Source: Vulcanimicrobiota bacterium (lineage in GTDB: Bacteria; Vulcanimicrobiota; Vulcanimicrobiia; Vulcanimicrobiales; Vulcanimicrobiaceae). From it: 64,000 bases of DNA. Location of the stretch: assembly GCA_963820825.1 (NCBI GenBank), contig CAWGBN010000006.1, positions 64,001 through 128,000 of the forward strand, in the 5' to 3' direction. The translations under genes and the position numbers were made by a program. Positions 4,294-36,065 of this stretch are shown here, in pieces. The notes under the pieces are model-generated. The model made no database searches and had not been told where the DNA came from. It was given only the letters and a program-made list of their open reading frames with translations. How positions within the stretch are numbered: position 1 is the stretch's first letter; each line of letters begins with the position of its first letter.

Positions 4294-4357
4294 ACTTGGT
4301 TGGTTACGCGCCGCAGGCCGGAGGCCTGCGGGGATGGCCGCCAGAAGGACGGCCCGG

Positions 4358-5146: not shown

Positions 5147-5172
5147 AGTCTCGACAGTCCGCGTTCGGACTA

Positions 5173-6848
<1,676 letters not shown>

Positions 6849-13290: not shown

Positions 13291-13725
13291 GTGGACCCAC
13301 TCGACCTGACGAAACGCCCCCCGCGCAGCCCGCGCGCGCTCTTACCCGGGCTCGATCTGCTCATGGCCGCCCGGACGGTCGACAAAATCCGCGCCACGCT
13401 TCCCGGCGGGAATATCGGCGAGTATCAGATCACCGGCTTCAGCTCGAGTCTGCTCAACGCGCTCGGAATCGTCGAGAGCGCCTTACGTGCCGCGGTCGCG
13501 CGTGCCGCATCGGACGCCGAGATCGGAGGCTGGATTCGAGAGCACAGCGACCCCAGCCGTTACCCGGAGATCAACGCTAAACAAGAAGGACGAACGATCG
13601 GCGAGCGCTTGGACGATCCCACGTTCGTCGCACGTTATCCGCTCGCTCGCCGCCTTCCACCCGAAGCCTCCCGGCTCGATCTGCTCATCGCCGACGATGC
13701 GGCGGCCTTCGAAGAGCGCGCCTAG
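13291..13725 (+). CDS. DUF5069-like protein
   Basis: DLTKRPPRSPR...ARTVDKIRA...GEY pattern. Confidence 0.7.
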   Translation: MDPLDLTKRPPRSPRALLPGLDLLMAARTVDKIRATLPGGNIGEYQITGFSSSLLNALGIVESALRAAVARAASDAEIGGWIREHSDPSRYPEINAKQEGRTIGERLDDPTFVARYPLARRLPPEASRLDLLIADDAAAFEERA

Positions 13726-14132
13726 CCGCCGTCCCCGACGACCTCTTCGGCCGAGACGGTCGACCGCCAGCAAATCTGCCAACGCTCGCCCTCGCGACGA
13801 AAGACGTACGTATCGAAGCCGCGCTCGCTGCCGCTGCGTCCACCGAACTCGTAGCGCATGCGCCACGGCATCGTCGCAACCGCAACGTCGCCGTAGGTAT
13901 CGACTTCGGGGTCGTCGATGCTCACCTCGAGAACCGTCGCGCTGCGGATGAAGTCGCCGTAGCTGGCCGCAACCGCCGCGCGCCCGCGCGCGACGCGCGC
14001 GAGACTCGGCGCTACGACGATCGCATCCTCGGTAAAATGCGGCGCGACGAGCTCGGCGATCGCTTCGGGTTCGACCTCTCGCCAAATCCGGTTGACTTCG
14101 GCCAGAACGCCGACGGGATCAAGCGACGGCAT
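13722..14132 (-). CDS. NTF2/SnoaL-like (DUF4440) protein
   Basis: HFTEDAIVV, GRAAV, YGDVAV, GFDTYVFRREGERWQI; overlaps the ddl stop. Confidence 0.8.
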   Translation of the reverse strand: MPSLDPVGVLAEVNRIWREVEPEAIAELVAPHFTEDAIVVAPSLARVARGRAAVAASYGDFIRSATVLEVSIDDPEVDTYGDVAVATMPWRMRYEFGGRSGSERGFDTYVFRREGERWQICWRSTVSAEEVVGDGG

Positions 14133-15072
14133 CGCGCAGGTCGGCACGAGCGCGCGCGTAGCCGACGATCCGGTCGATCAACGATTCGAACGAGATGCCG
14201 ACCGCCGCACAGGCATCGGGAACGAGGCTCACCGGCGTCAAGCCGGGGAGAGAGTTGATCTCCAGGAGATGCGGACGCTGATCGGACGTGACGATAAAGT
14301 CGCTTCGCGAGTAATCGCGCAGCCCCAGCAGACGATGCGCAGAGAGCGCGAGCATCTGCAGGCGTGCGGCGAGATCTTCGTCGATCGGCGCCGGGACGAC
14401 GTGCGTGCTGCCGCCGGGCTCGTACTTGGCATCGTAACTGTAGAAGCCGTCGCGATTGGCGACGATCTCGACGATCGGCAGCGCCTCTTCGCCGAGCACC
14501 GCACAGGTAAACTCCCGGCCCTCCAGATACTCCTCGGCGAGAATCTGCGAGTAATTTTTCGAGGCCTCGAGCATCGCACTCGTCCACTCTTCGTGCGTGC
14601 GAACGATCGCGACGCCGGCCGAGGAGCCCTCGAAGCGCGGCTTGACGACGAGCGGAAGGTCGAGCGAACCCGGCAGCAGCGGCAGGGTCCCGCCGCTCAG
14701 ATCGAAGAGATCCCAAACCGGCGTCGGCAGCCCCTCCGCCGCGAGCAGTTTCTTGGTGAGATGCTTGTCCATCGAGAGTGCCGCCGCTTCCAGCCCGCTG
14801 CCGGTATACGGAATCGAGAGATACTCGAGCAATGCTTGAACGTGGCCGTCCTCGCCGCCAGGTCCGTGCAGCGCGATGAAGACGATGTCGGGCTTGAGCT
14901 GACGAACGGCGTCGAGAAAGCGCTCGTCGTAATCGAGCGATTGCGCGTCATACCCAAGCGAGTTGAGCGCGCGCACGACTTCGGAGCCCGAACGGATCGA
15001 GATCTCTCGCTCCGCGCTACTGCCGCCCATCACGACGGCGACGCGCTCTTTGCTGCGGGTATTACGTTGCAT
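14119..15072 (-). CDS. ddl: D-alanine--D-alanine ligase
   Basis: GGSSAEREIS, ALHGPGGEDG, MDKHLTK, GSSAGV, YDAKY, EINSLPG. Confidence 0.97.
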   Translation of the reverse strand: MQRNTRSKERVAVVMGGSSAEREISIRSGSEVVRALNSLGYDAQSLDYDERFLDAVRQLKPDIVFIALHGPGGEDGHVQALLEYLSIPYTGSGLEAAALSMDKHLTKKLLAAEGLPTPVWDLFDLSGGTLPLLPGSLDLPLVVKPRFEGSSAGVAIVRTHEEWTSAMLEASKNYSQILAEEYLEGREFTCAVLGEEALPIVEIVANRDGFYSYDAKYEPGGSTHVVPAPIDEDLAARLQMLALSAHRLLGLRDYSRSDFIVTSDQRPHLLEINSLPGLTPVSLVPDACAAVGISFESLIDRIVGYARARADLRDAVA

Positions 15073-16018
15073 CGATGAAAACTCCAACCAAGTGCACTTC
15101 GAGCTGTAAATCGACGTTCGAGCGGTCGCGCACCGCCCGGCGTACGCGTGCGAGCAGCGTTGCGACGTCTCGTGCCGTCGCTCCGCCGAGGTTATTGATG
15201 AAGTTGGCGTGCAGCTTCGAAACTTCCGCTCCGCCTTCGCGCCATCCCTTGGCCCCCGCATCTTCGATCAACCGTGCCGCCGCCGCGCCGGGCGGGTTGC
15301 GAAAGCAGGAGCCTGCGTTGGGCAGCGCGATCGGCTGCGTCTTCTTGCGCCGGATGAGGCGCGTCTGCATCTCGCTGCGGACGTCGCGCGCGCTCGAGCC
15401 GGCGAAGTCGAGCACGACCCGCGAGACGACGACGTCGCGGTCGAGCGTCGAGTGGCGATAGAGGTACTGCACCCCGGCGGCGTGCGGCTCCGGCCGCCCC
15501 GGCGACTGCACCCACACCTCGCGAACGAACTCTCCGATCTCCCGATCGGTGCCGGCATTCATTCGCAACGATCCGCCGATCGTTCCGGGAATCCCGGCCA
15601 GCGAACCGATACCCTCGGCGCCGGCCGTCGCCGCCTTTGCCGTCACGAGTGCCATGTCGGCCGATCCGCCGGCCTCGACGACGACGCGCTCGCCCTCGTT
15701 ACGGACGTTCACCGCCGCAAAATCTCCGGCGAGCCGGATGACGACCCCGCGAACGCCGCCGTCGCCGACGAGCACGTTGCTCCCGGCGCCGACGATCCAC
15801 CACGGCATCCGCCGGCGCAGGCAGAAGCGCATCAGCCGCGCCAGCTCCGTCTCGTCCTGCACGGCTGCGAACGCGTCGGCCGGACCGCCGATCTTCCACG
15901 AAGTATACGGCGCGAGCGGTTCGTCGAAGCGAACCCGCGACCCAAAGATCTCCCGCAGCGATTCGCGATCCGCATCGTCGAGCAGCGAGCGCAGCGCTCG
16001 CGCGGTGGTGACGCTCAC
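15062..16018 (-). CDS. murB: UDP-N-acetylenolpyruvoylglucosamine reductase
   Basis: IGGPAD, GAGSNVLV, GIPGTIGG..RMNAG, NAGSCFRNP, HANFINN. Confidence 0.97.
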   Translation of the reverse strand: MSVTTARALRSLLDDADRESLREIFGSRVRFDEPLAPYTSWKIGGPADAFAAVQDETELARLMRFCLRRRMPWWIVGAGSNVLVGDGGVRGVVIRLAGDFAAVNVRNEGERVVVEAGGSADMALVTAKAATAGAEGIGSLAGIPGTIGGSLRMNAGTDREIGEFVREVWVQSPGRPEPHAAGVQYLYRHSTLDRDVVVSRVVLDFAGSSARDVRSEMQTRLIRRKKTQPIALPNAGSCFRNPPGAAAARLIEDAGAKGWREGGAEVSKLHANFINNLGGATARDVATLLARVRRAVRDRSNVDLQLEVHLVGVFIDAT

Positions 16019-17406
16019 GCGCGCAGCGGCGTGACGCGCGCTTCGACCGGCGTGGAGAAGCGTTGCGCCAATCGCACCGCGACGTCGGTAATGTCGCCGG
16101 CACCGAGCATCAGCACCAGCGCGCCGGCGGGAGCCTCCTCATAGAGTCTTCGCTCGAGCTCGGCGACCGATTCGGCATACTCGACTCTCGCGCCGAGGGC
16201 CGCGAGCGACTCGCCGATCGAACGTTCGCTCACGCCCGGGATCGCGGGTTCCGACGCGGCGTAGACCGGCGCGAGATAGATGCTGTCGGCGCCGCGCAGC
16301 GCCGCGGCGAACTCCCGCGCCAAGAAAGCGGTTCGCGTATATCGGTGCGGCTGGAATGCGACGATCAGCTCGCCGGGATGGCAGCGGCGCGCAGCGGCGA
16401 TCGTGGCACTGACCGCGGTTGGATGGTGGGCGTAATCGTCGACGATGGTAACGCGCTCGTTCGCAAGCAGAATCTCGAAGCGGCGGCGCACGCCGCGAAA
16501 CTCGCGCAGGGCCGTCGCGATCGCGGAGAAGGGCACGCCGAGCTCGAGGCCGATCGCGATCGCGGCGAGAGCGTTCTGCGCGTTCATCGCGCCCGGCACG
16601 CGAAGCTCGATCCGTCCCAGCGTTCGATCGCCCGCGAGCAGATCGAACGCGGAGCCGAAACCGGCGAAGGTAAGATTGACGGCGCGCAGCGACGCGGATG
16701 GGTCGAGTCCAAAGGTGACGATTCGCGCGCGCAGATCGTGCGCGGTGAGCGAAGCGGAGAGCGAGTTGTCGGCGCCGATCACCGCGAGACCGCGCTCGGG
16801 GAGCTTCGCGAGAAACTCCGCGAAGGCGCGCGCCAGCGCCGGCAGCTCGTCGTCGCTGGCGAGGTGATCGTTCTCGAGATTCGTGACGACGGCCATCGCC
16901 GGTTCGAGCAGCGCAAAGGATCCATCCGATTCGTCGGCTTCGGTAACGAACCAGGGCGAGGTTCCGTCGTGGGCGTTGCTTCCAAGCGAGACATCGATGC
17001 CGCCGAGCACGAGACTCGCATCGATCCCGCCGTGACGCAAGACCGCGTGCGTCATCGCCGTCGTGGTCGTCTTACCGTGCGTTCCGCAGACGGCGATCCC
17101 GTTTCGCCCGGCGAGCAGACGTGCGAGCATCTCTCCGCGATGTAAGATCGGAGTGCCGAGTCGCGCCGCCGCCGCGCACTCGGGATTGCGGCGGTCGATC
17201 GCCGAGCTGACGACGACGGTGCTCGCGGCGCGCACGTTGCGCGCGTGGTGTCCGATCGTAATCCGGGCACCCTCGGCGCGCAACCGCTGCAGAAGCGGTG
17301 TCTCGCCGAGATCCGAGCCGGAGACGCTCTCACCGCGTGCCAGCAGAATGCGGGCGATCGCGCTCATCCCGATGCCGCCGATGCCGACGAAGTGGTAGCT
17401 CGTCAC
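16015..17406 (-). CDS. murC: UDP-N-acetylmuramate--L-alanine ligase
   Basis: HFVGIGGIGMS, GTHGKTTTT, EADESDGSF, DDYAHHP, FQPHRYTRT. Confidence 0.97.
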   Translation of the reverse strand: MTSYHFVGIGGIGMSAIARILLARGESVSGSDLGETPLLQRLRAEGARITIGHHARNVRAASTVVVSSAIDRRNPECAAAARLGTPILHRGEMLARLLAGRNGIAVCGTHGKTTTTAMTHAVLRHGGIDASLVLGGIDVSLGSNAHDGTSPWFVTEADESDGSFALLEPAMAVVTNLENDHLASDDELPALARAFAEFLAKLPERGLAVIGADNSLSASLTAHDLRARIVTFGLDPSASLRAVNLTFAGFGSAFDLLAGDRTLGRIELRVPGAMNAQNALAAIAIGLELGVPFSAIATALREFRGVRRRFEILLANERVTIVDDYAHHPTAVSATIAAARRCHPGELIVAFQPHRYTRTAFLAREFAAALRGADSIYLAPVYAASEPAIPGVSERSIGESLAALGARVEYAESVAELERRLYEEAPAGALVLMLGAGDITDVAVRLAQRFSTPVEARVTPLRA

Positions 17407-18497
17407 GCGTTCTCTCTTCGCGACGTCAAGAGATCGATCCGGGCAAGAATCGCGGTCAGCGGGTCGGCTCCCCCCAAACGCGCGGCCCCTTCCGCCAGCT
17501 CGCGCAGCCGGAGCGGTTCGACCGTCTGCGCCAACAGGGAGGGCAAGCCTCCGTCTTGCAACTGCGCGTCGGTGAGGACGACGGCCGCACTGCCCGCGGC
17601 AAATCGTGCCGCGTTTGCGTCTTGATGGCCCTCCGCCGCATGCGGATACGGAACGAGGATTGCGGGCTTTCCGAGCGCGGCCAACTCGCCGAGCGTCGAC
17701 GCTCCGGCGCGCGAGAGAACCAGGTCGGCAACCGCGTACGCGTCGGCCATGTCGTCGAGATAGGCGCGCGCGTTCGGCAGCTCCGAGGCGACGCGATCGA
17801 AATCGGTTCGCCCCGTCAACGCCAGGAGTTGCCAACCCGGCGGCAATCCGCGCTCGCGCGTCATTTGGATCAAGGCATCATTGATCGAGCGCGCGCCTTG
17901 ACTTCCGCCCATCGCAACGAGCGTACGCCGCGACGGATCGAGCCCGAGGCGCGCGATCGCATCCTCGCGCGGCGGCAGCGCGCGCAACGTCGATCGGATC
18001 GGGATTCCGGTCGCCCGGTACTTCCCATTCGACCGGCCGCCGGCCGCGTACGGCGGAATCCAGACTTCGTCGACGATCGGGGCGAGTAGTCGGTTCGTCA
18101 AACCCGGCGCCGCGTTGGGCTCGAGCAGGACGAGCGGCGCGCGCGAGAGCCCCATCGCGCGCCGGATGCGCGCGGCCAGCGCGACCGGAAAGCAGACGTA
18201 GCCGCCCGTCGCAATTACGAGATCGGGTCGTTGCGCCGCGAGAAGCCGCAGGCTCTGGAGCGTGCCTTTGATATTCGATGCGATCGTTCGAACGAGGTCA
18301 AAGGAGGGCGAACGCGGCAGCGAGCGGCTCGAAATCGCGTGGAGATCGTAGCCGGCCGTCGGAACGATCGTCGCTTCGAGGCGATCGGCGGTACCGATGA
18401 AGGCAATCTTCGCGCGCCGCTCGCGTAAGGCATCGGCGATCGCGATCGCCGGATAGAGGTGCCCGCCGGTTCCGCCCCCAGCAAAGACGACGGTCAC
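17403..18497 (-). CDS. murG: Lipid II GlcNAc transferase
   Basis: GGGTGGHLYP, GGYV, GGSQGA, SRAGASTL.EL, HQDANA. Confidence 0.97.
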   Translation of the reverse strand: MTVVFAGGGTGGHLYPAIAIADALRERRAKIAFIGTADRLEATIVPTAGYDLHAISSRSLPRSPSFDLVRTIASNIKGTLQSLRLLAAQRPDLVIATGGYVCFPVALAARIRRAMGLSRAPLVLLEPNAAPGLTNRLLAPIVDEVWIPPYAAGGRSNGKYRATGIPIRSTLRALPPREDAIARLGLDPSRRTLVAMGGSQGARSINDALIQMTRERGLPPGWQLLALTGRTDFDRVASELPNARAYLDDMADAYAVADLVLSRAGASTLGELAALGKPAILVPYPHAAEGHQDANAARFAAGSAAVVLTDAQLQDGGLPSLLAQTVEPLRLRELAEGAARLGGADPLTAILARIDLLTSRRENA

Positions 18498-19642
18498 GTA
18501 TAGGGCGTCCGGCGCGCGTGGCGCGCCGGAGAGTTTCGCCCGACGTTGGCGATGAGCGCGACCGCAATGCAGTTGACGACGAGCGAGCTGCCGCCGAACG
18601 AGATGAAGGGCAACGGCACGCCGGTCACCGGCCACGACGACGAAACGACGCCGATATTGATGAAGGCCTGAATGGTGATCATCGCCGCGCAGCCGATCGC
18701 GAGGAAGAAGCCGAAGCGATCGGGTGCCGCAAGCGCGATGCGGATCGAACGGTAGGCAAGCGTAACGAAGAGGACGATGACGGCCAGCGTCCCGATCAAT
18801 CCCAACTCTTCGCCGAGCACCGAGAAGATGAAGTCCGTATACTGCTCGGGCAGATAGAAGAACTTCGCGCGCGAGGCGCCGAGACCGACGCCGAAGAGCC
18901 CGCCGCTCCCCAAGGCGAGGAGCGATTGAACGATGTGGAAACCGGTATTGAGCGGATCCTTCCACGGATCGACGAAGGCAAAGACGCGCGCGCGCCGGTA
19001 GGGACTCGCCAGCACGCTGAGCGCGGCAAACGGAACCATCGCGACCACGATCGCGGCGAGATGGAGTAGACGCGCGCCGCCGGCGAAGAAGAGCGCGAGC
19101 GCGATGAAGAGCAGCAGGCTCGCCGTGCCCATATCGGGTTCTTTGAGCACCAAGACCGCCATGATCGCGACCGGAATGCAGAGCGGAACGAGTCCGCGCG
19201 CGAGCGAGGTGATGCGCTCGCCGCGCGTCGACAAGACGGCAGAGAGATAGATCACCAGTGCGAGCTTCGCGAACTCCGAGGGTTCGATGCTCAATCCCGC
19301 CGCGCCGATCCAGCGGCGTCCGCCGTTGACGCCGAAACCGACGTGCGGAACGAAGACGAGCATGAGGCCGAAAATGGCCGCGACGAGCAGGTACGGCGCG
19401 ATCGAGCGCAATCGGTGATAGTCGATTCGATAACAAACGTAGGCGGCGCCCAGGCCGACGGCCAGCCAAATCAATTGACGCTTGAGATAGTACGCGATGT
19501 CGCCATGCTCGGCATACGCCGTCGCGCTCGACGCCGAGAAGACCATAACCAAACCGATCGCAATCAGCGCCGCGACGGCCGTGAAGAGCACGGTGTCGAG
19601 CGGCGCGCGCGCCGATGCGCGCAACGTCGCCGCGCTATGCAC
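18494..19642 (-). CDS. ftsW: Peptidoglycan polymerase FtsW
   Basis: GGRRWI, EPSEFAK, EPDMGT, LPEQYTDFIF..LGEELG, GVPLPFISFGGSS. Confidence 0.96.
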   Translation of the reverse strand: MHSAATLRASARAPLDTVLFTAVAALIAIGLVMVFSASSATAYAEHGDIAYYLKRQLIWLAVGLGAAYVCYRIDYHRLRSIAPYLLVAAIFGLMLVFVPHVGFGVNGGRRWIGAAGLSIEPSEFAKLALVIYLSAVLSTRGERITSLARGLVPLCIPVAIMAVLVLKEPDMGTASLLLFIALALFFAGGARLLHLAAIVVAMVPFAALSVLASPYRRARVFAFVDPWKDPLNTGFHIVQSLLALGSGGLFGVGLGASRAKFFYLPEQYTDFIFSVLGEELGLIGTLAVIVLFVTLAYRSIRIALAAPDRFGFFLAIGCAAMITIQAFINIGVVSSSWPVTGVPLPFISFGGSSLVVNCIAVALIANVGRNSPARHARRTPYT

Positions 19643-21035
19643 CGGCCGTCTCCCGCAGCGCGTTGACGGCTGCAACGAACTGCTCGCCGCGGTCTTCGGC
19701 CGATTCGAACATGTCAAACGAGGCGCAGCCCGGTGAGAGTAAGACCACGCCGCCGGCACCCGCAAACTCCCGAGCGCGTCCGACCGCCTCTTCCATCGAT
19801 CCCGCGTGGGCGACGGCGACGCCGGAGGCGGCACGAGTGATCTCTTGCGCGGCTTCGCCGATCGTCACGAGCGCCCGCGCGCGCTCGCGGATCGCCGCGC
19901 CCATCGCTTCGAAGGTGGTGCCCTTCGCGCGTCCGCCGGCGATGAGGACGACCGGCACCTCGTAGGTATAGAGCGCCGCGACGACCGCCGCCGGATTCGT
20001 CGCCTTGGAATCGTCGACGTAGCGGATGCCGTCGATCTCGGCGACGGTCTTGAGACGGTGCGGCATCGGCTCGAAGCTCTTGATCGACTCACGCAGCGTT
20101 TCGACCGCGCACCCCGTCGCCAGCGCGGCGAGCAGCGCCGCCATTGCGTTGCGCACGTTGTGCTCGCCGGGAAGCGGGATCTCTTCGCGGGCAACGATCG
20201 GAATCGGCCGCGGATCGCCCGCGACCGGCGCATACATCACCAGCCCGTCGCGCAGGTACATCGTCGCGCGATCGGGGCGCTCGAGCGAGAACCAGAGCTG
20301 GCGCGCCTGCGCGCGCGCGTTGCCGTCGCGCCAATCCAGCACCGCAACGCGCGGATCGTCGAGATTGCCGACGAACCAGTCGGTCATCGATTGATTCGCG
20401 CAGATGCGATACTTCGCTTCGGCGTACTCCTCCATCGAATGGTAGCGGTCGAGATGGTCGGGCTCGATGTCGAGCAAGACCGCGACGCGCGGCTTAAACG
20501 CACGAATCGTCTCGAGCTGAAAGGAAGAGACCTCGGCAACGACCCACTCGTCGGCCGCCGCGCCGCGCACTTCCTTGATGAGCGGGTTGCCGATGTTTCC
20601 GCCGACCCGCACCCGCCGGCCGCAGCCGCGCAGCAAGTGTCCGATCAGCGCGGTGGTCGTCGACTTACCCTTCGTTCCGGTGACCGCCACGATCGGCGCC
20701 CCGCAGAGCCGGTAGGCGAGCTCGATCTCGCCGAGCACCGGAACGTCGGCTTCGTGCATGCGGCGCACGACCGGCGAGGTCGGCGGAACGCCGGGCGATA
20801 GCACCGCGCAGCCGAGATCGCGGGCGATCGCGCCAATCGACGCGGGCTCGACGAACTGCGCGCCGTGAGCCCGTGCGAAGGCGATGGGGTCGACGAGTTC
20901 CGCGACGGCCTTCTCGTCGGTCGCGTAGAGCGTCACGTTCTGCTCGCTCAAGATCTCGATACTCGCTAAACCGCTGCGTCCGAGGCCGATGATCAGGATC
21001 TTCTCGCCGGCATCAAATTGAAAAGGTTCGCTCAT
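19635..21035 (-). CDS. murD: UDP-MurNAc-L-Ala--D-glutamate ligase
   Basis: GLGRSG, SPGVP, TGTKGKSTTT, EVSSFQL, DDSKATN, LSPGCASFD. Confidence 0.97.
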   Translation of the reverse strand: MSEPFQFDAGEKILIIGLGRSGLASIEILSEQNVTLYATDEKAVAELVDPIAFARAHGAQFVEPASIGAIARDLGCAVLSPGVPPTSPVVRRMHEADVPVLGEIELAYRLCGAPIVAVTGTKGKSTTTALIGHLLRGCGRRVRVGGNIGNPLIKEVRGAAADEWVVAEVSSFQLETIRAFKPRVAVLLDIEPDHLDRYHSMEEYAEAKYRICANQSMTDWFVGNLDDPRVAVLDWRDGNARAQARQLWFSLERPDRATMYLRDGLVMYAPVAGDPRPIPIVAREEIPLPGEHNVRNAMAALLAALATGCAVETLRESIKSFEPMPHRLKTVAEIDGIRYVDDSKATNPAAVVAALYTYEVPVVLIAGGRAKGTTFEAMGAAIRERARALVTIGEAAQEITRAASGVAVAHAGSMEEAVGRAREFAGAGGVVLLSPGCASFDMFESAEDRGEQFVAAVNALRETAGA

Positions 21036-22003
21036 CGCACGATGGCCCATCCTAACAGCGAAGCGAGCACCGACGCAAGCCAAAAGCGCGAGGTCACCTT
21101 CGTCTCGGGCCATCCGCTGAGTTCGAAGTGATGATGCAGCGGGCTCATTCGCAGTATTCGCCGTCCGCCCGTCGCCTTGAAGTACCCGACTTGCAGGATG
21201 ACCGAGAGCGCTTCGGCGACGAAGACCGCGCCGATTACGACGAGCAGCAGCATCTCTCCGGTGAGTATCGCCGATCCGGCGAGTAAGGCTCCGAGCGCGA
21301 GCGAACCGGTATCGCCCATGAAGATGCGTGCCGGATGCAGGTTGAAGAGCAGAAAGCCGGCGCAGGCACCGATGCCCGCGGCGGCGGCAACGGCCACGCC
21401 CGGCACCGAGGCGCTCGTCGCGACGAGCGCGAGCACGACGAGCGGCGGAATCATCGTCCCGGCCGCGAGTCCGTCGAGACCGTCGGTGAGATTCACCGCA
21501 TGGGTCGTTGCGGTAATGGCGAGAATCCCGAGCAGCAGCCAGAGCCAGTGCGGCGCCACCAGCGCAAAGCTGCCGGCGTGGAAGAGGACGTCGGGCGGGA
21601 AGAGGCTCGGTGAGGCGGCCGCCACCCGCAAGAAGAACGCCGCGGCGAGCGCGGTCGCCAAGAACTTCGTGCGCGCGCGCAGGCCGCGATTCGCGCCGTT
21701 GCGGATCGCGAGCATATCGTCGACCGCGCCGATTCCGGCGCAGAGCGCGACGAGCAAGACGAGTTCGGGTAGTAAAGGAAGACGCACGCTCGCAAGCGCC
21801 ACGAGCAGCACCACGACGAAGACGATGCCGCCCATTGTCGGCGTTCCCGTCTTGGTTTGATGGGTTTCGGGAGCGTCTTCGTAGGCGCGCTGGCGCACCT
21901 CGAGGCGGCCGAGGATCGCGAGCAGCGCCGCGGTCGTGAGTGCGGCGACGAGAAAGCCGGCGAGAACCCAGAGACCGAGCGTCGCCCACGACGGATTGCT
22001 CAC
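21032..22003 (-). CDS. mraY: Phospho-MurNAc-pentapeptide transferase
   Basis: KTGTPTMGG, VNLTDGLDGL, FMGDTGSL, PLHHHFE. Confidence 0.97.
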   Translation of the reverse strand: MSNPSWATLGLWVLAGFLVAALTTAALLAILGRLEVRQRAYEDAPETHQTKTGTPTMGGIVFVVVLLVALASVRLPLLPELVLLVALCAGIGAVDDMLAIRNGANRGLRARTKFLATALAAAFFLRVAAASPSLFPPDVLFHAGSFALVAPHWLWLLLGILAITATTHAVNLTDGLDGLAAGTMIPPLVVLALVATSASVPGVAVAAAAGIGACAGFLLFNLHPARIFMGDTGSLALGALLAGSAILTGEMLLLVVIGAVFVAEALSVILQVGYFKATGGRRILRMSPLHHHFELSGWPETKVTSRFWLASVLASLLGWAIVR

Positions 22004-22713
22004 GACGGCGCCTCGAGCAGCGGATTCGGCCCGCTGGCGCGCCATTTCAGCACCACGATCGGCGTCTGCTCGTCGCTGTTGCCGTGGGGATTGTCGAGCA
22101 GCGTCGCTTCCACGCTTGTCGCGCGGACGCCGGTCGAACACCCCAGCACCTTCGCTCGTCCGAGATCGTTCACATCGACCACCGCGCAAGCGATGCCGGT
22201 CTGCTCTTGGACGAGGCGTGCGAAGCCGGCGGCGTCGCGCGGCGCGAAGACGATCGCACGCTCGTACGGCGGCATCGTCCCGGTGTAACCGTCGAAGGCC
22301 GCAATTGCTTCGCCCATTACCTCGTAGAAGGCGCCGCGCCGGCCGACGATCCGGCCGGCAAGCTGCAGCAGCGTCGCGTAGACGACCTTCCACGTTCCGA
22401 CCCGATCGATGACGAGCTGGACCGACTCCGGCTGACTGATCGTCGCCATCGGATCGGCGCGCCGCGAGAGTGCGAAGGCCAGGCGCGACGGGCGAACGTA
22501 CTCGGCGGCGAGCAGCTCGCCTTGCGCGATCGCAACGGCGGTCTCCGAAACGGTGATGACGTCACCCGGTCGCGCGATGCCGCGCACCGCGCGCGCGATC
22601 GATGCGACGAGATCGTCGCCGGGGCAAACGAGCGGCGTTCGGATGGGGATCGCGGTCAGCCCGGCCGGCACCTCCGGGCGGGTTACGAGCAGACCGCGCG
22701 TTGCAAGGCTCAC
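22000..22713 (-). CDS. Coenzyme F420-0:gamma-glutamyl ligase (CofE)-like protein
   Basis: PIRTPLVCPGDDL, GDVITVSETAVAIAQG, AFDG, VVDVND, DNP.GN.DEQTP; 4-nt overlaps with both murF and mraY. Confidence 0.8.
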   Translation of the reverse strand: MSLATRGLLVTRPEVPAGLTAIPIRTPLVCPGDDLVASIARAVRGIARPGDVITVSETAVAIAQGELLAAEYVRPSRLAFALSRRADPMATISQPESVQLVIDRVGTWKVVYATLLQLAGRIVGRRGAFYEVMGEAIAAFDGYTGTMPPYERAIVFAPRDAAGFARLVQEQTGIACAVVDVNDLGRAKVLGCSTGVRATSVEATLLDNPHGNSDEQTPIVVLKWRASGPNPLLEAPS

Positions 22714-24086
22714 GTGCGCAACTCTTCGACGATCTCTTCCAATTTGTATCTGCGCGAGCCCTTCAAGAGGACGACGTCGTCGGGTCGAACGTGCTCGCGC
22801 AGCCATCGTGCCGCTTCGGAGTTCGTAGCGATCTGAACGATCTGGCGGTCGGTGAGACCGCCGCGCTGCGCGCCCCGCCGCAGATCGGCGGCATAATCTC
22901 CGCTCACCAGAAGCACGTCGACGCGCGCCGCCGCGTGAGCGCCGACGCGCTCGTGCAGCGCGCGCGACTCCTCGCCGAGCTCGGCCATCGAGGCGAGCAC
23001 CGCAATATGGCGCGCCGCCGTCTCGCCGGCAAAGGCGTCGAGTGCGGCAATCATCCCGTTGGCGTTGGCATTGTACGCATCGTAGATTAGTTGAATACCG
23101 TGCAGCGCGAGACGATCGTAGCGCCCTTGCGGTAGGCGCAGATCCGGGATCAGCGCGATGAGCGGTTCGAGCGGCACCTCGAGCTCGATCGCGCCCGCAA
23201 TCGCGGCCGCGAGATTCGCGCGGTTGTGCACTCCCGGCACCCGCACGTCCAACGCGAGCTCGACGCGCTCGCTGCCGGTACGATGGAGGAGACGCCGGTT
23301 GCCGAGCACGGTATACGCCGATCCCGCCAATGCGTGCTCTTCGATCGGCTCTTCCTCAACGGAGAACCAGTGCGGCGCACGAGCGAGCGTCACGGCGCGA
23401 CGGCGCGACGCTTCGTCGCCCGCGTTGAGCACCGCGCGCGCTCCGCGCGCAAAGAGTCCCCACTTCGTCTCCTCGAGACGCTCGCGCGAACGCATGATCT
23501 CCACGTGCGCGTCGCCGACGTTGGTGAGGATGCCGGCTTCGGGGCGAGCGATCTCGACGAGCGCCGCGACGTCGCCGTAATGGCGGGCGCCCATCTCGAC
23601 GACGAGCACGTCGTGGGCCTCGTTCGACGCGCGTAACAAGAGTTTGCTGACGCCGATCTCGTTGTTCTCGTTCTCGGGCGTGGCCAGGATACGCTCGCCG
23701 AACTTTGCCGCGAGCAACTGCGCGAGGAACGCTTTGGTCGTCGTCTTGCCGGTGCTGCCGGTAACGGCGATGACTCGGCCGCGAAAGCACCCGCGCGCCG
23801 CTCCCGCAAGCGCCATGTAGGCCGCCGTCGTATCGCGCACGAGCATCGTCGCGATACCCGGCACGCGCGCTTCGGGCCGGTCGACGACGAGCATCGAGGC
23901 GCCTCGCCGCACCGCCTCCGCAGCGTAATCGTGACCGTCGAACCGCTCGCCGCGCAACGCGACGAAGGTCTCGCCGGGTCGAATCGTCCGCGTATCGGTG
24001 TTCGCGCGAAGCGTCGCCGGTGCGGTTTGCCCGTCCACGAGCTTCGCCGAGGTTGCCGCGATTGCCGAATCGAGCGGAACGTTCAT
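22710..24086 (-). CDS. murF: UDP-MurNAc-tripeptide--D-Ala-D-Ala ligase
   Basis: DTRT, GERFDGH, TGSTGKTTTK, NNEIG, DAYNAN, MAELG, KGSR. Confidence 0.97.
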   Translation of the reverse strand: MNVPLDSAIAATSAKLVDGQTAPATLRANTDTRTIRPGETFVALRGERFDGHDYAAEAVRRGASMLVVDRPEARVPGIATMLVRDTTAAYMALAGAARGCFRGRVIAVTGSTGKTTTKAFLAQLLAAKFGERILATPENENNEIGVSKLLLRASNEAHDVLVVEMGARHYGDVAALVEIARPEAGILTNVGDAHVEIMRSRERLEETKWGLFARGARAVLNAGDEASRRRAVTLARAPHWFSVEEEPIEEHALAGSAYTVLGNRRLLHRTGSERVELALDVRVPGVHNRANLAAAIAGAIELEVPLEPLIALIPDLRLPQGRYDRLALHGIQLIYDAYNANANGMIAALDAFAGETAARHIAVLASMAELGEESRALHERVGAHAAARVDVLLVSGDYAADLRRGAQRGGLTDRQIVQIATNSEAARWLREHVRPDDVVLLKGSRRYKLEEIVEELRT

Positions 24087-25552
24087 CGCAGCGCCCCGCG
24101 CGCGGCGAGTGCTTCGCGCACGACCGCGCCGTCGTCGAACGGCAAGACGCGATCGCCGACGATTTGATAGGTTTCGTGCCCCTTCCCGGCGACGAGCACC
24201 ACGTCACCGGAACGGGCTTCGGCGATCGCTCGTTCGATCGCACGCCGGCGGTCGAGCTCCACGACATAATCTCGCCTGCCGATTCCGGCGGCGATCGCAT
24301 CGACGATTGCTTGCGGCGCTTCGGAACGCGGATTGTCGCTGGTGAGGTAGATGCGATCGGCGAGCCGCGCCGCGACCGCGCCCATCTCCGGGCGCTTTCC
24401 CCGATCGCGATCTCCGCCGCAGCCGAAGACGACGGCGATCCTGCCGTTCGCCGTCTCGCGCAGCGACTGCAGCGCCGATTCGAGCGCGTCGGGCGTGTGC
24501 GCGTAATCGACGACGACCGCGACGTCGCCGCCGGCGTGCCGCTCCATCCGGCCCGGAACGCGCGCGATCTGCGCGAGCGCCTGCGCGCTCGTGCCGTCGT
24601 CGATCCCGAAGCAGCGCGCGACGCCGATTGCGGCCAACGCGTTCCAAACGTTGAAACGCCCCGCCAGCGGAAGCTCGTACCGCCGTCCGTCGACGACGAA
24701 GCGGCTCGACCCCGCTTCGACGACGATCTCTTTCGGAACGAGGCTCGCATCGCGCTCCATACCGTAGGTGATCACCTCGCGTCCGTCGCGGCGCAGCTCC
24801 CCGGCCCATCGGCGGCCGTGCGGATCGTCGGCGTTGAGCACGCAGCGTTTCGCGAGCTCGAAGAGCCGCCGCTTTGCCGCAGCGTACGCTTCTACCGTTT
24901 CGTGAAAGTCGAGGTGGTCGCGCGCGACGTTGGTCAGGGCCGCCGCGAAGAAGCGCACGTCGTCGATTCGGTCGAGCGCAAGCGCGTGGGAGCTCACCTC
25001 CATCGCGACGGCGGCGGCGCCGGCGTCGCGCATCTCCGCGAGCAATCGGTGGAGTTCGGGCGGGAGCGGCGTCGTGTTCTCGAGATGCCATGTTTGCTCG
25101 GCGAACTCCGCGCCGACCGTCCCGACGACTCCGCACGGCGTTCCCGCAGCGCCCAGAATCGCGGCGATCATGTGCGTCACCGTCGTCTTGCCGTTCGTAC
25201 CGGTGACGCCGACCACCGCGAGATCGTGCGACGGATCGCCGTAAAATGCCGCCGCCAGCGCCGAGAGCGCGCGCCGCGCGTCGCGTACGCGCACGGCCGC
25301 AACCTCGGCCGGAAGGCTTACGTTCGCATCCGCCTCCAGGACCACGGCGCGAGCGCCTCGCGCGATTGCGTCGTCAACGTAGCGACGGCCGTCGGTATGG
25401 CTCCCGCGCAGCGCGACGAAGAGCGCGCCGGGTTCGACCTCGCGCGAGTCGATCGCAATCTGGGTAATCGTAAGGTCGCGCTCGCCGGAGATCTCCGTCC
25501 ACGCGACCCGGCTCAGCAGCGTCGCAAGCGCGACGCTGCGATCACCGCCCAC
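24083..25552 (-). CDS. murE: UDP-MurNAc-dipeptide--meso-diaminopimelate ligase
   Basis: TGTNGKTT, MEVSSH, DHLDFH, DYAHTPD, GCGGDRD, DNPR (mDAP-type motif), GKGHE. Confidence 0.97.
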   Translation of the reverse strand: MGGDRSVALATLLSRVAWTEISGERDLTITQIAIDSREVEPGALFVALRGSHTDGRRYVDDAIARGARAVVLEADANVSLPAEVAAVRVRDARRALSALAAAFYGDPSHDLAVVGVTGTNGKTTVTHMIAAILGAAGTPCGVVGTVGAEFAEQTWHLENTTPLPPELHRLLAEMRDAGAAAVAMEVSSHALALDRIDDVRFFAAALTNVARDHLDFHETVEAYAAAKRRLFELAKRCVLNADDPHGRRWAGELRRDGREVITYGMERDASLVPKEIVVEAGSSRFVVDGRRYELPLAGRFNVWNALAAIGVARCFGIDDGTSAQALAQIARVPGRMERHAGGDVAVVVDYAHTPDALESALQSLRETANGRIAVVFGCGGDRDRGKRPEMGAVAARLADRIYLTSDNPRSEAPQAIVDAIAAGIGRRDYVVELDRRRAIERAIAEARSGDVVLVAGKGHETYQIVGDRVLPFDDGAVVREALAARGALR

Positions 25553-27281
25553 GCCGTGCGACGGAAGCGCTCGGCAAGACTCCGGCGTGCAGCATGGCAT
25601 CGCGGGCGATCTCGGCAAATGCGGGTGCGGCGACGATGCTTCCGTAGTATGCGCCGATCGGCCGTTCCACTTTCACGTAAATGACGTAACGGGCATGCGG
25701 GTAGGGGACCATTCCGATGAACGACGCCGCGTAGTATCCCGCGCGATACTCACCGTCGACCACCATCTGCGCCGTACCGGTCTTTCCCGCCGTCGCATAG
25801 CCTGCAATCCGTGCGCTCGGGTCTCCGGTACCGTGAAGGACGACCGTGCGGAGGAACGAGCGCAGCTCCGCGGCAGTGCGCTGCGAGAATACGCGCCGCA
25901 CTACCTCCGGCGAGTAGCGCCGCACGAGCGCGCCATGCGGATCGTAAACGCCGTGCACGATGCGCGGCTGCATCAGCAGCCCGCCGTTGGCGATTGCGGC
26001 GTAGTAGCGCGTCATCGCCAGCGGCGTGACCGAGACGCCTTGACCGAAGGACATCGTCGCGAGTGACGAGCCGCTCCACTGCGACGGCGGCGGCACGATT
26101 CCCGGATTCTCGCCGGAAAGGCCGACGCCGGTTGGCGTTCCGAATCCCGCCTTGCGCTCCATCGCATAGAGTGTCTTGCCGCCGATCGCAAGACCGACCT
26201 CGGCCGCACCGACGTTGTGCGAAAGCGCGATGATCTGCTCGAGCGTCTCGCTGCCCCCGGCTCCCATGAGACCGTCTTCCGCATTGTGAATCGTCTGACC
26301 GCCTACTTCGATCTCGTTGCGCGCGGGAAAGCGGCTCGCGAGGGTGACTTTGTGCGATTCGAGGGCGGCGGCCGCAGTGATGAGCTTATACGTGGAGCCG
26401 GGTTCGTAGGCATCCATCACCGCGCGATCGCGCCGCTGCGCGTCGTTGAATTTCCAGAAGCGGTTCGGATCGAAATCCGGCATGTTGGCCATCGCGAGGA
26501 TCTCGCCGGTCCACGGATCCATCACGATCGCGGTTCCGTCGAGCGCGTGATACGCGTTCACCTGCTTCGCGAGCGCCCGCTCGGCAACGAACTGAAGGTA
26601 CGGATCGATCGTTAGCTCGACGTCCAATCCAGGCTGCGCCGGCATGATGACGCGCTCTCGGCCGAAGGGTATCGGGCGCCCGAACTCATCGGCTTCGAGC
26701 GTGACTCGTCCCGACTGACCGCGCAGCACGTCATCGTAGGCATATTCGATTCCGTCGAGGCCGTTTTCATCGGTACCGACAAAGCCGATGACGGTCGAGC
26801 CGAGGCGCCCGGCGGTGTCGACGCGTAATCCCGTCTGCTCTTCTTTGAGGTCGATGCCGATCAGGCCGAGACTGCGGACGCGCGCCGCTTCGTCGTGCGG
26901 CACCTTTCGCGCGATCCACGCGAACCAGAGATGCCGGTCGTGCAGCGCGGCGATCGTCGCCGCGTCGAGCCTGCCGAAGATCCGTTCGAGCTTCGTAACC
27001 GTCGCATCGGGATCGACGATCTCGCGCGGCACCGCGTAGACGCTCTCCGACGGGAGCGAACGGACGAGCACGTTTCCGCTGCGATCGAGAATGCCGCCGC
27101 GGCGTGCAAAGACCTCGACGGTATCGGAACGCTGGGCGAGCGCCTCTCTCGCATAGAGCGAACCTTTGAGCGCTTGGACGTCGTAGAGCCGCCACGCGAG
27201 AAAGAGCGCGACGATGAGACATGCATAGAACGAGAGCCGGGCGCGCATCGGAGCGACGCGCGCAAAGGTTCGCTGATGCAT
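25542..27281 (-). CDS. ftsI: Class B PBP FtsI
   Basis: RGGILDRSG, EPGSTYK (SxxK), SHN (SxN), KTGTAQ. Confidence 0.95.
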   Translation of the reverse strand: MHQRTFARVAPMRARLSFYACLIVALFLAWRLYDVQALKGSLYAREALAQRSDTVEVFARRGGILDRSGNVLVRSLPSESVYAVPREIVDPDATVTKLERIFGRLDAATIAALHDRHLWFAWIARKVPHDEAARVRSLGLIGIDLKEEQTGLRVDTAGRLGSTVIGFVGTDENGLDGIEYAYDDVLRGQSGRVTLEADEFGRPIPFGRERVIMPAQPGLDVELTIDPYLQFVAERALAKQVNAYHALDGTAIVMDPWTGEILAMANMPDFDPNRFWKFNDAQRRDRAVMDAYEPGSTYKLITAAAALESHKVTLASRFPARNEIEVGGQTIHNAEDGLMGAGGSETLEQIIALSHNVGAAEVGLAIGGKTLYAMERKAGFGTPTGVGLSGENPGIVPPPSQWSGSSLATMSFGQGVSVTPLAMTRYYAAIANGGLLMQPRIVHGVYDPHGALVRRYSPEVVRRVFSQRTAAELRSFLRTVVLHGTGDPSARIAGYATAGKTGTAQMVVDGEYRAGYYAASFIGMVPYPHARYVIYVKVERPIGAYYGSIVAAPAFAEIARDAMLHAGVLPSASVARRGR

Positions 27282-27311
27282 TCCTTCGACCGCCCTAGCG
27301 ACGGGTTACGC

Positions 27312-27761
27312 TCACTGCGAGCGCGTCACCGCCGGAGCGAAGAATCCGGCCAGCGTCGAGAAGAGTGCAAAACGCGACCGCACGCGAGCGACCCGCGGCG
27401 GCTCGATTCTCACGACCGCAAGGGTCTGCGGTTCGCGCATGCCCAATCGCGCGGCAATCGCCGCGAGCCGGTCGTCGGAACGAAGCGCGGCGATGCGATC
27501 GTCGAGCCGCATCGTCTCTTCCTGCAACGCTTCGCGGTCGGCTCGCGCCGTGGCCACCGCATAGCTCAACCCGGTGAGGCTGGACGTCAGCAGGACGTAG
27601 CTCATCAGCAAGAAGAGCAAGCAGCTCAGGGCGATGAAGACCCGGCCGACGCCCGTATAGCGCGCTCGCGATTTGCGCACCATCCGCCGCTGCGTCGCGG
27701 CCCGCACGGTTCGCGGGTTGCGAATCCGCGACGCGCGCTCGATGAGACGCGGTGCGACCAT
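27312..27761 (-). CDS. ftsL: FtsL-like cell division protein
   Basis: Between rsmH and ftsI; basic N-terminus, single TM, coiled coil, IAARLGM. Confidence 0.75.
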   Translation of the reverse strand: MVAPRLIERASRIRNPRTVRAATQRRMVRKSRARYTGVGRVFIALSCLLFLLMSYVLLTSSLTGLSYAVATARADREALQEETMRLDDRIAALRSDDRLAAIAARLGMREPQTLAVVRIEPPRVARVRSRFALFSTLAGFFAPAVTRSQ

Positions 27762-28634
27762 CAGCTTGCCTTTCGTTGCGCGGCGCGCAGCTTCGCGCTG
27801 CGCGCGCGCCGATTCTCGGCGATCTCCTCGCGGCCTGGGAGAACCGGGCGCTTCGTCAGCACGTCGAGACGCTCGTCGTTGCGGAAGCTCTGCTTGACGA
27901 TTCGGTCTTCGAGCGAATGGAAGCTGATCGCGACGACGCGTCCGGCGCCGCGCAGACGGCCGACGGCTCCGTGCAAACCTTCGCGCAACGCTTCGAGCTC
28001 GTCGTTCACCGCGATGCGCAACGCCTGAAAGACTCGCGTCGCCGGATGAACTCGCTCGCGCCGGCCGCGGCGCTGCACCACGCCCGGCAACGAGCTGGGC
28101 GAACTCCGCGGTCGTACTCGGCAGATTGGCATTCGTCCGGCGGGCGACGATCGCGCGCGCGATGCGCCGCGCGGAGCGCTCTTCGCCATAGTAAAAGAAG
28201 ATATCCGCGAGCTCGCCTTCGCTCGCCGTCGAGAGTATATCGTAGGCGCTGCGTCCCGCGCCGGGATCCATCCGCATGTCGAGCGCAGCCGGTTTTCCGA
28301 GCGAGAAGCCGCGCTCGGGATCGTCAAGTTGCATCGACGAGACTCCCAAATCGAAGAGGACGCCGTCGATCGAGTCGATTGCGAATCGATCGAGGACGTG
28401 AGTGATTTCCCGAAAGTTTGCCTGAGCGAAGACCAACCGCGAGTCGGAGATCGCAGCGGCGCGAGCCGCCGCGTGCGGATCGGCATCGATTGCGATCACG
28501 CGACCACCCTCGAGCCGCTCCAGCATCGAGCGCGTATGTCCGCCCGCCCCGAACGTGGCGTCGACGTAGATCCCGTCGGGGCGTATCGCCAGATACTCCA
28601 TGGCAGCCTCGAGCAGCACCGGAACGTGGCTCAC
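27761..28634 (-). CDS. rsmH: 16S rRNA m4C1402 methyltransferase, apparent frameshift at ~28084
   Basis: [23 protein letters not shown]; second frame [30 protein letters not shown]. Confidence 0.96.
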
Positions 28635-28646
28635 GCCGCCGCCACA

Positions 28647-29087
28647 TCACAGACCAAACTCGGCCATGAAGCTGGGGATCTCGCCCTCGGGGGGCGCCTG
28701 GAAGTCGTACCGCTCCTTCGCCCAAATCTCGATCCGCGTGAGCAGTCCGACCGAGACGACCTGCCGTTCGATGCCCGCATAGGAACGCAGCCGCGCGGGA
28801 ACGACCACCCGTCCCTGCGCGTCGCAACCGACCTCTTCGCTATGCGCGAAGAGATAGCGGATATGGCGGCGGTAGCGCTCGTCCTTGGTGGGAACCGCCT
28901 CGAGCCGGCCGCAGAACTCGACCCACGTGGCGGTCGGGTAGAGCGCCAGGCAGGCATCGGGAGGGGCGATCGTTAGGACAAACTGGGGCCCGAGTCGCTC
29001 GCGGAAGCGCGCCGGCACGATAAGCCGCCCCTTGTGGTCAAGGGCGTGCTGCTCCGAACCGGCAAAGCGCGGCAGTTCCGCGTGCAC
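28647..29087 (-). CDS. mraZ: Transcriptional regulator MraZ
   Basis: LDHKGRLIVP and DAQGRVVVP repeats, IEIW. Confidence 0.95.
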   Translation of the reverse strand: MHAELPRFAGSEQHALDHKGRLIVPARFRERLGPQFVLTIAPPDACLALYPTATWVEFCGRLEAVPTKDERYRRHIRYLFAHSEEVGCDAQGRVVVPARLRSYAGIERQVVSVGLLTRIEIWAKERYDFQAPPEGEIPSFMAEFGL

Positions 29088-35315: not shown

Positions 35316-36065
35316 CTACGACCCGGTCGACCCAGACGAGCACGGCGATGCGGCCGGGTTGTTCGCGATCTCGATGCTGGTGATCTGCGCGGCCGGATCG
35401 CTGATGTTCGGGTCGAGCGCATAGAATGTGGTGTCGAAGCACGTCAGCATATTCAACGTCGGCGAGACCCATTGCGGATCGGCCGGGCCGCCGGCGCCCA
35501 TCGAATCTACGAAACGCCACACACCCGAGCCACTTGCCGCCGTCGTAAACGCGTTGAACTTCCAGTTGTTCGAGGGAGTGGCGCTGGGCGAGGGATTCGG
35601 CGACGGCGTCGAGTTGAAAATTCGTTTTTGAGCGAGGATCGAAAACTCGGTGCCAAGGCCGCCTGCGTTAAGGTTGTAGGAGAACTGTTGAGGCGTCGTG
35701 ATGAGCGGGTGCCAGACCGGAGGAACGTGCGGGTTCTGATTGCTGCGAACGAACTGCACGAGTTGGGCGTTGGTAGAAACGCCGTTTCCCCGTGCCACGA
35801 TCGCCCATGAGTATCCGTCCCAGTTCGTCTGAATCGTATCGGTGGAAGGCGTGCGGCCATCGCCGGTCGTGTTCAGCACGACCAGGTACTGGTAGTTGCT
35901 GAAGTTGAAAGGCGCTTGAACGTTGAAGAATACCGCAAAGTATCCCGGGGGCGCGCCACCGGGCCCTAAGCCCGCAGGATTTGGCGTGACCTGACGACCA
36001 CACGCCGCAACGATGAACGCCGTTATTAGAACGACTACGAAACCGAAACTCAATCTGCGAATCAT
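35316..36065 (-). CDS. Hypothetical lipoprotein
   Basis: GAGGAG RBS; MIRRLSFGFVVVLITAFIVAAC lipobox; beta-rich mature domain. Confidence 0.8.
   Translation of the reverse strand: MIRRLSFGFVVVLITAFIVAACGRQVTPNPAGLGPGGAPPGYFAVFFNVQAPFNFSNYQYLVVLNTTGDGRTPSTDTIQTNWDGYSWAIVARGNGVSTNAQLVQFVRSNQNPHVPPVWHPLITTPQQFSYNLNAGGLGTEFSILAQKRIFNSTPSPNPSPSATPSNNWKFNAFTTAASGSGVWRFVDSMGAGGPADPQWVSPTLNMLTCFDTTFYALDPNISDPAAQITSIEIANNPAASPCSSGSTGS

Follow-up and report, generated by a model that had tools for sequence, protein, structure and literature searches.

A CofE-fold paralog encoded between murF and mraY in Eremiobacterota is a candidate peptidoglycan-precursor amide ligase

We analyzed a 64,000-nucleotide stretch of DNA (the window; positions 64,001 to 128,000 of contig CAWGBN010000006.1, assembly GCA_963820825.1) from a Vulcanimicrobiota bacterium. 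Within its division and cell wall (dcw) cluster, between murF and mraY, lies a gene for a 237-amino-acid (aa) protein with the fold of CofE, the glutamyl ligase of coenzyme F420 biosynthesis. The gene overlaps both of its neighbors by four nucleotides, and we consider here whether its product could act on peptidoglycan precursors. The gene, its overlaps and its flanking genes are as follows.

22000..22713, minus strand: CofE-fold paralog, the gene in question; 237 aa, GTG start (translation, partial PF01996 match, AlphaFold model)
22710..22713, minus strand: GTGA overlap of the murF stop and the CofE-like start (plus strand tcac, read directly)
22000..22003, minus strand: GTGA overlap of the CofE-like stop and the mraY start (plus strand tcac, read directly)
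22710..24086, minus strand: murF (UDP-MurNAc-tripeptide:D-Ala-D-Ala ligase), immediately upstream (Mur_ligase, Mur_ligase_M and Mur_ligase_C)
21032..22003, minus strand: mraY (phospho-MurNAc-pentapeptide transferase), immediately downstream (Glycos_transf_4 and MraY_sig1)

A preliminary description made from the letters of this DNA had proposed a CofE-fold gene of this length with GTGA overlaps on both sides, and sequence, translation, Pfam and fold match agree on this. A longer, ATG-started open reading frame (ORF; 22000-22806, 268 aa) was considered as the gene and rejected, as homologs start at the GTG position instead.

The relationship to CofE is clear in fold and distant in sequence. The protein matches the F420_ligase family PF01996 (E 3.6e-12; 46.7 bits versus a gathering threshold of 25), but the match spans only profile positions 2-81 of 218. 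An AlphaFold model based on an alignment of 35 family members has a predicted local distance difference test (pLDDT) score of 90.7, and in a Foldseek search of the PDB the CofE entries 2PHN, 2G9I and 7ULD were the sole matches below E 0.001 (E ~1e-9; A. fulgidus CofE). Alignment to five true CofE sequences with hhalign gave 98% probability over residues 27-190. The CofE Asp-x-Asn motif (TDTN) aligns with the near-invariant D180-x-N182 of the paralog family. The near-invariant polar set of this family comprises T26, D51, Q64, D180, N182, D183, N208, P209, G211 and T217. Matches in the ESM Atlas were to clusters of the protein's own family only. On the equivalog model TIGR01916 the window protein scores 30.4 bits versus a cut-off of 180.65, whereas true CofE controls from related genomes score 253 bits; the cut-off of NF009809 (274) is likewise not reached. 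A maximum-likelihood tree of 81 domains parted the 5 true CofE rows from the 76 paralog rows by a long branch, with 100% support in the Shimodaira-Hasegawa-like approximate likelihood ratio test. The window gene thus has the CofE fold but is a paralog, and not an ortholog, of the F420 glutamyl ligase. Pfam found neither Mur_ligase_M nor Mur_ligase_C in the protein, though its neighbors carry such domains, and no hydrophobic segment is present that could serve as a membrane anchor.

The genomic setting also lacks an F420 pathway. In the window's own genome, which is 85% complete, the window gene is the one PF01996 match, and no CofD, CofC, CofG or CofH scores over cut-off. The preliminary description had noted that the window holds no F420 biosynthesis gene; Pfam found no match to these families among the window ORFs scanned. 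It had also expected no co-occurrence with the pathway more broadly; in the class, CofD equivalogs score over cut-off in 0 of 101 genomes. The same is true of 0 of 101 Negativicutes genomes, which become relevant below. In other lineages the two coexist: 5 of 5 tested genomes, drawn from Acidimicrobiia and from the phylum's other classes, have a true CofE (198-262 bits) in addition to the paralog, at separate loci. Relatives of the window protein are nevertheless annotated publicly as 'coenzyme F420-0:L-glutamate ligase'. We also noted a CofH-like radical-SAM gene in the window's own genome (G000:C8:52351-55247) that scores 308 bits, below the cut-off of 374, and is adjoined by a second, fragmented copy with an internal TGA; we take these genes to be probably of the MqnC/MqnE type of the futalosine pathway and not of the F420 pathway.

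The gene is conserved across its phylum. We identified homologs in 40 of 41 close relatives and in 149 of 151 genomes sampled across Eremiobacterota, including all 120 of the high-quality ones. For the neighborhood survey we took 49 loci of the type seen in class Eremiobacteria, in sets of 9, 3 and 37, the last being contigs named Eremiobacterota or Vulcanimicrobiota. In 48 of these the gene is directly flanked by murF upstream and mraY downstream, all three on one strand, and the 49th is truncated where its contig ends. One to three unpublished genomes (G036, G551 and G558) enter these counts, and conclusions are unchanged without them. Because the gene is present in nearly every genome of the phylum and holds the same position in these loci, we conclude that it is conserved far beyond chance, and the dcw position proposed for it in the preliminary description is fixed in 48 of the 49 loci. 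In all four genomes of one genus (g5), murF and the CofE-like gene form a single open frame of 742-810 aa. An independent gene call of such a fusion (P0125, 736 aa) contains three Mur-ligase domains together with F420_ligase. In other classes of the phylum the homolog is longer (~400 aa), is 33-43% identical to the window protein, and had no dcw genes within 8 kb at 5 of 5 loci.

Outside this phylum the family is most consistently found in Negativicutes, where it occurs in 150 of 151 sampled genomes of the class to which the Selenomonadaceae metagenome-assembled genome (MAG) of locus L074 belongs (E <= 1e-65). Among the named carriers are Selenomonas sputigena, Selenomonas sp., Anaerovibrio and Schwartzia, and in each the protein bears the annotation F420-0 ligase. 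In 20 of 20 Negativicutes loci (L117-L136) the CofE-like gene is adjoined and preceded by a small gene with an N-terminal hydrophobic helix, here called the anchor gene, and a 4HBT thioesterase gene lies before both. A glutamate racemase gene is inside the block in 15 of the 20, and a Hydantoinase_A and Hist_deacetyl pair comes after it in 8. The same pair recurs beside an Amidase_3/CofE-like pair in a Bacillota locus (L144). The histone-deacetylase family holds acetylpolyamine amidohydrolases.

Negativicutes are also the bacteria in which polyamine-bearing peptidoglycan is known. Excerpts of several reports place cadaverine or putrescine on the alpha-carboxyl of D-Glu (PMC10628300, PMC12826042, bioRxiv 10.1101/2021.05.31.446380), and the D-Glu polyamine is described in part of one of them as what OmpM's SLH domain binds in diderm Firmicutes (PMC10628300). 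The family therefore occurs in bacteria with polyamine-modified peptidoglycan, a comparison that the preliminary description had suggested. No named peptidoglycan:polyamine ligase, or gene for one, was found in the literature searched. Attachment of diamines in Selenomonas is reported to be ATP-dependent, with a lipid intermediate as acceptor. For the putrescine modification in Cyanophora, a section of one study describes a membrane-bound stage and better activity with lipid II (PMC3266927). This stage fits an anchored enzyme, and the Negativicutes and cyanobacterial forms of the family are membrane-anchored.

The anchor is a domain in its own right. A search of 1.84 billion representative sequences returned 666 relatives at E <= 0.001, and a common form of the family, of about 400 aa, has an unassigned N-terminal domain before the ligase domain. 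This anchor domain opens with a hydrophobic helix in 22 of 23 sequences, and a confident model of P0272 (pLDDT 88) shows a generic immunoglobulin-like beta-sandwich after the helix. No Pfam family matched the domain even at E 5, and the structures that Foldseek matched to it, such as adaptin ear domains, say nothing about its function. In cyanobacteria and the phylum's non-Eremiobacteria classes a single protein carries both the anchor and the ligase domain; in Selenomonadales (7 of 8 loci) and at three Bacillota loci the anchor has a gene of its own, immediately upstream. An hmmsearch of the window's genome with a profile of the 23 sequences identified no anchor-domain homolog (best E 0.76). 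Several contigs labeled Betaproteobacteria, Burkholderiales or Chitinophagales (among L020-L024, L066-L071 and L088) have anchor domains near those of Xenobia-type Eremiobacterota, with 45-55% identity to P0272; the public taxon labels of these contigs may be wrong.

We scanned for further domains in 20 of 150 listed relatives, picked for unusual length. Among these are fusions to MurF (1), Amidase_3 (3) and polysaccharide deacetylase (1), as well as to asparagine-synthase-type amidotransferases (P0238, P0261, P0269 and P0265) and to GNAT, adenylate kinase and M20 peptidase domains (P0195, P0264 and P0267). In the tree, the asparagine-synthase-type, GNAT, adenylate kinase and M20 peptidase fusions fall outside the 56-row clade that contains the window protein. 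The Amidase_3 fusions have no obvious export signal (maximum 19-mer hydropathy 1.48 in P0146).

Gene neighborhoods outside Eremiobacteria point to basic amino acid decarboxylation and to the cell wall. Loci were searched with an 11-row alignment, and of the best 80, each species being represented by one genome, 43 fall outside the dcw type (16 cyanobacterial, 8 Selenomonadales, 6 with a fused anchor and 13 others). A decarboxylase gene is a neighbor in 9 of the 43, and two unrelated decarboxylase families are involved. OKR_DC_1 (Orn/Lys/Arg decarboxylase) adjoins the gene in three Acidimicrobiia loci (L092, L103 and L106) and in Limnochordales (L093), where decarboxylase, Amidase_3 and CofE-like genes follow one another on one strand. 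Pyruvoyl arginine decarboxylase adjoins it in five loci (L075, L081, L094, L068 and L082). What appeared to be a fusion of CofE-like protein and decarboxylase in L092 is a pair of adjacent genes that overlap but differ in frame. In 7 of the 43 loci Amidase_3 either adjoins the gene or is fused to it, and all 13 of the other loci have either a decarboxylase or an Amidase_3 neighbor. In further Bacillota loci, L144 has Amidase_3 and then the CofE-like gene, with MurJ, MurT and GatD genes 2-5 kb away; L145 has the same core; and L146 has LysM protein, arginine decarboxylase and Amidase_3 genes nearby. No such wall or decarboxylase neighbor was seen in L147.

In the window itself, the genes around murF, the CofE-like gene and mraY form a complete dcw cluster entirely on the minus strand, in the order mraZ, mraW, ftsI, murE, murF, CofE-like gene, mraY, murD, ftsW, murG, murC, murB, ddl.

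25542..29087, minus strand: dcw cluster, upstream part (Pfam)
28647-29087, minus strand: mraZ (Pfam)
27312-28634, minus strand: ORF within which mraW lies (Pfam)
25542-27281, minus strand: ftsI (Pfam)
24083..25618, minus strand: murE (Mur ligase domains; DNPR at residue 428 of the 511-aa ORF, by motif search)
14119..21035, minus strand: dcw cluster, downstream remainder (Pfam)
19635-21035, minus strand: murD (Pfam)
18494-19834, minus strand: ftsW (Pfam)
17403-18500, minus strand: murG (Pfam)
16015-17406, minus strand: murC (Pfam)
15062-16018, minus strand: murB (Pfam)
14119-15261, minus strand: ddl (Pfam)

The DNPR motif attributed to MurE in the preliminary description is present. The 3' end of the cluster (13483-15261, minus strand) consists of ddl and a 200-aa ORF without a Pfam match, and no ftsA or ftsZ family was detected by Pfam among the window ORFs scanned. 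Elsewhere in the window are genes for an LptF/LptG permease and apolipoprotein N-acyltransferase (Lnt), at 31141-32295 and 36013-37572 on the plus strand, which are consistent with a diderm envelope with lipopolysaccharide and triacylated lipoproteins. GroEL (Cpn60) appears as two ORFs (4304-6833, minus strand), of which 6159-6833 covers profile positions 1-199 and 4304-6115 covers 250-490. A frameshift, a fault in the assembly or an artifact of ORF calling could explain the split.

We propose that the window gene encodes an NTP (nucleotide triphosphate)-dependent amide ligase that modifies a peptidoglycan precursor, most likely with a decarboxylase-derived diamine, a reading for and against which we find the evidence about evenly balanced. 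The wider proposition, that the paralog family is the long-missing enzyme attaching diamines to the peptidoglycan stem peptide, is more tentative, and we think it somewhat more apt to fail than to hold. The protein would be a soluble, cytoplasmic CofE-fold enzyme recruited to precursor synthesis. If it works as CofE does, it would hold a nucleotide triphosphate and divalent metal at the interface of a dimer and convert a free muropeptide carboxylate to an acyl phosphate, from which attack by an amine would displace phosphate to form the amide. In Eremiobacteria the substrate would be UDP-MurNAc-pentapeptide or -tripeptide, just before transfer to the lipid carrier by MraY. A UDP-MurNAc-peptide is the likely substrate because the gene is co-translated with those for MurF and MraY, is fused to MurF in one genus, and encodes no membrane anchor. 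The amine would most likely be cadaverine, putrescine or agmatine, produced by a basic amino acid decarboxylase, and the site in Negativicutes and Eremiobacteria would most likely be the D-Glu alpha-carboxyl. In sister lineages (Negativicutes, cyanobacteria and the other Eremiobacterota classes), the ligase domain is tied to the membrane-anchored beta-sandwich partner and would act on lipid I or lipid II.

The availability of the site and of the amine in the host class can be considered separately. MurT_C was identified in 0 of 61 class Eremiobacteria genomes, and therefore nothing known occupies the D-Glu carboxyl there. An OKR_DC_1 decarboxylase is present in 96 of 101 class genomes, and the copy in the window genome is 46% identical to the neighbor of the CofE-like gene in L092 (Acidimicrobiia). 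No candidate of PF02784 (Orn/DAP/Arg decarboxylase), a family that we take to include LysA, was found in the window genome, whereas 13 of 14 control genomes have one; either the gene belongs to the 15% that the MAG lacks, or lysine is synthesized by a different route.

Several observations weigh against the diamine proposal. We infer ligase chemistry for the window protein from fold alone, and parts of the CofE active site differ: the invariant K40, K44 and E46 of CofE (SKAEGR region) correspond to Thr/Ser, Ile and the invariant Gln64 by hhalign and HMMER, the segment after Asp-x-Asn is D-L-G rather than G-R-x, and the last 45 residues cannot be aligned to CofE by sequence. Neither the window gene nor any of its 48 dcw-type relatives has a decarboxylase gene next to it, and the only OKR_DC_1 gene of the window genome sits in an unrelated neighborhood, beside holB-like and R3H genes. 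The link to diamines is therefore transferred from relatives linked to decarboxylases, amidases and anchors, to which the window form is only 39-40% identical and to whose clade the Eremiobacteria clade is sister in the tree, not nested within it. Mutual exclusion of the paralog and MurT/GatD had been expected as support and was not observed: among 101 Bacillota genomes, 36 have the paralog, 32 have MurT and 11 have both, versus 11.4 expected by chance. With co-occurrence at chance level, the family as a whole does not behave as though it competed for the alpha-carboxyl of D-Glu. Shared ancestry of gene order, as in the racE-rph region of Bacillus, may account in part for the racemase and thioesterase neighbors in Negativicutes. 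Of 121 Cyanobacteriota, 40 also carry the family, and we know of no report of polyamine-bearing peptidoglycan in that phylum; elsewhere it is patchy (the 36 Bacillota genomes above and 4 of 81 Acidimicrobiia). Lastly, SLH (PF00395) was not found in the window's own genome (85% complete) or in three of five relatives tested (G022, G128 and G076), which include two complete single-contig genomes of the window's genus; G051 and G037 have one match each. The window genus thus lacks a recognized OmpM-type protein to read the modification, and the outer-membrane tether and SLH-porin companion suggested in the preliminary description are not supported for it.

The central claim of that description, an extra Mur-pathway enzyme that adds a diamine or amino acid, fares better in part. 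It gains comparative support from the missing F420 pathway, the coexistence with true CofE elsewhere, the MurF fusion, the near-universal presence in Negativicutes and the linkage to decarboxylase and wall genes, whereas the Bacillota result argues against the D-Glu alpha-carboxyl as a universal target. The two Negativicutes within the Bacillota sample lack MurT. There is thus no conflict with MurT for Negativicutes and Eremiobacteria, and the target site may differ between clades.

Other explanations of the locus differ in how much of this proposal they retain. The enzyme could be a precursor amide ligase that uses another nucleophile (Gly, D-Ala, Glu or ammonia) or another site, such as the epsilon-carboxyl of meso-diaminopimelate, the C-terminal D-Ala carboxyl or the MurNAc lactyl carboxyl. 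The dcw position and the MurF fusion are silent on the identity of the amine, and CofE itself adds an amino acid, to a first substrate whose carboxyl belongs to a lactyl group in the account given in part of PMC10861534. Amidase_3 partners would expose the MurNAc lactyl carboxyl, 11 of the 36 Bacillota genomes with the paralog also have MurT/GatD, and four proteins in other clades of the family are fused to asparagine-synthase-type amidotransferases. Those fusions lie outside the 56-row clade of the window protein, however, and both the linkage in 9 of 43 loci to decarboxylases from two unrelated families and the core status of the gene in Negativicutes point to diamines, so we regard another nucleophile or site as unlikely, if well worth keeping in mind. 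A protein that is no enzyme at all would explain the replacement of several expected active-site residues: as an adaptor or regulator, the CofE fold would bind UDP-MurNAc-peptide, MurF or MraY and channel or gauge precursor flow, a role that would resemble that of YvcK/GlmR and to which tight coupling and fusion to MurF would be suited. Set against such a scaffold, D51, Q64, D180-x-N182-D183, N208-P209, G211 and T217 are invariant or nearly so in different domain fusions and phyla, as in a catalytic pocket, the partner domains are enzymes, and decarboxylase neighbors imply a small-molecule substrate. We judge this improbable.

The chemistry could also run in reverse, with an amide hydrolase or transferase removing or exchanging a stem-peptide substituent during recycling. 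Hydrolases are among the fusion partners (Amidase_3, M20 peptidase and polysaccharide deacetylase), and the lack of an obvious export signal in the Amidase_3 fusions would suit recycling in the cytoplasm. The sole characterized members of the CofE fold are ligases, though, the adenylate kinase fusion suggests use of nucleotides, and a biosynthetic slot between murF and mraY would be odd for a recycling enzyme, which leaves this explanation with little probability. Least credible of all, and in our view close to negligible, is the view that the gene encodes a true if divergent CofE, or a poly-glutamylase for some other cofactor, and lies in the dcw cluster only by coincidence. A PF01996 score above the Pfam threshold and the public annotation of relatives speak for it; scores far below the equivalog cut-offs, the lack of CofD, CofC and CofG in the genome and of CofD in 101 class genomes, the coexistence with true CofE elsewhere, and a position fixed in 48 of 49 loci speak against it.

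An amide ligase acting with a diamine on the peptidoglycan precursor would be unexpected, because peptidoglycan synthesis is among the best-charted of pathways and an extra conserved enzyme would lie in its core operon. The link drawn here between the murF-mraY CofE-like gene family, polyamines and Negativicutes makes the family a concrete candidate for the enzyme that places the D-Glu polyamine bound by the OmpM tether. If the proposal is true, an annotation as 'F420-0 ligase' that is widespread in organisms without F420 would be corrected, and polyamine-bearing peptidoglycan would be widespread rather than an oddity of Negativicutes, extending to an entire phylum of soil bacteria, to roughly one in three of the cyanobacteria and Bacillota sampled, and to some Acidimicrobiia. 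The anchored form would then act at the membrane in Negativicutes, in cyanobacteria and, by descent, perhaps in glaucophyte cyanelles, and the Eremiobacteria form would have become soluble and coupled to MurF. New wall chemistry is thereby predicted in Eremiobacterota, which part of one report describes as abundant in oligotrophic environments (PMC9758169). The family would also bear on the origin of CofE, called unclear in a passage of a review (PMC8498797): the F420-pathway enzyme would then have branched off from a more ancient family of cell-wall ligases.

Of the known systems, CofE and FbiB's N-terminal domain (PF01996, TIGR01916; 2PHN, 2G9I and 7ULD) share their fold with the window protein. 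Identity to CofE is about 20%, however, the equivalog cut-offs are failed, and the window protein does not retain the residues of the F420 pocket; the isoalloxazine part of that pocket is lined in A. fulgidus CofE by G153-C155, as described in part of PMC10861534. The genomic partners of the window family are cell-wall and polyamine genes, not F420 genes. The diamine-attaching activity of Selenomonas and Veillonella, and the N-acetylputrescine of Cyanophora cyanelles, are a good taxonomic fit to the family, given its distribution in Negativicutes (150 of 151) and Cyanobacteriota (40 of 121), whereas the window protein is soluble, encoded in a dcw operon, and found in a host with no known polyamine-bearing wall or SLH reader. 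MurT/GatD, which amidates D-Glu of lipid II in Gram-positive bacteria, resembles the proposed step in that a stem-peptide carboxyl is converted to an amide at the expense of ATP or another NTP, as set out in part of PMC3266927. The folds are unrelated: MurT belongs to the Mur ligases, and no Mur-ligase domain is present in the window protein. A further parallel is YvcK/GlmR, a CofD-like protein that binds a UDP-sugar. Its fold is that of CofD and not CofE, and its role is regulatory, not catalytic, but it is a precedent for the reuse of an F420-pathway fold in cell-wall precursor metabolism without F420.

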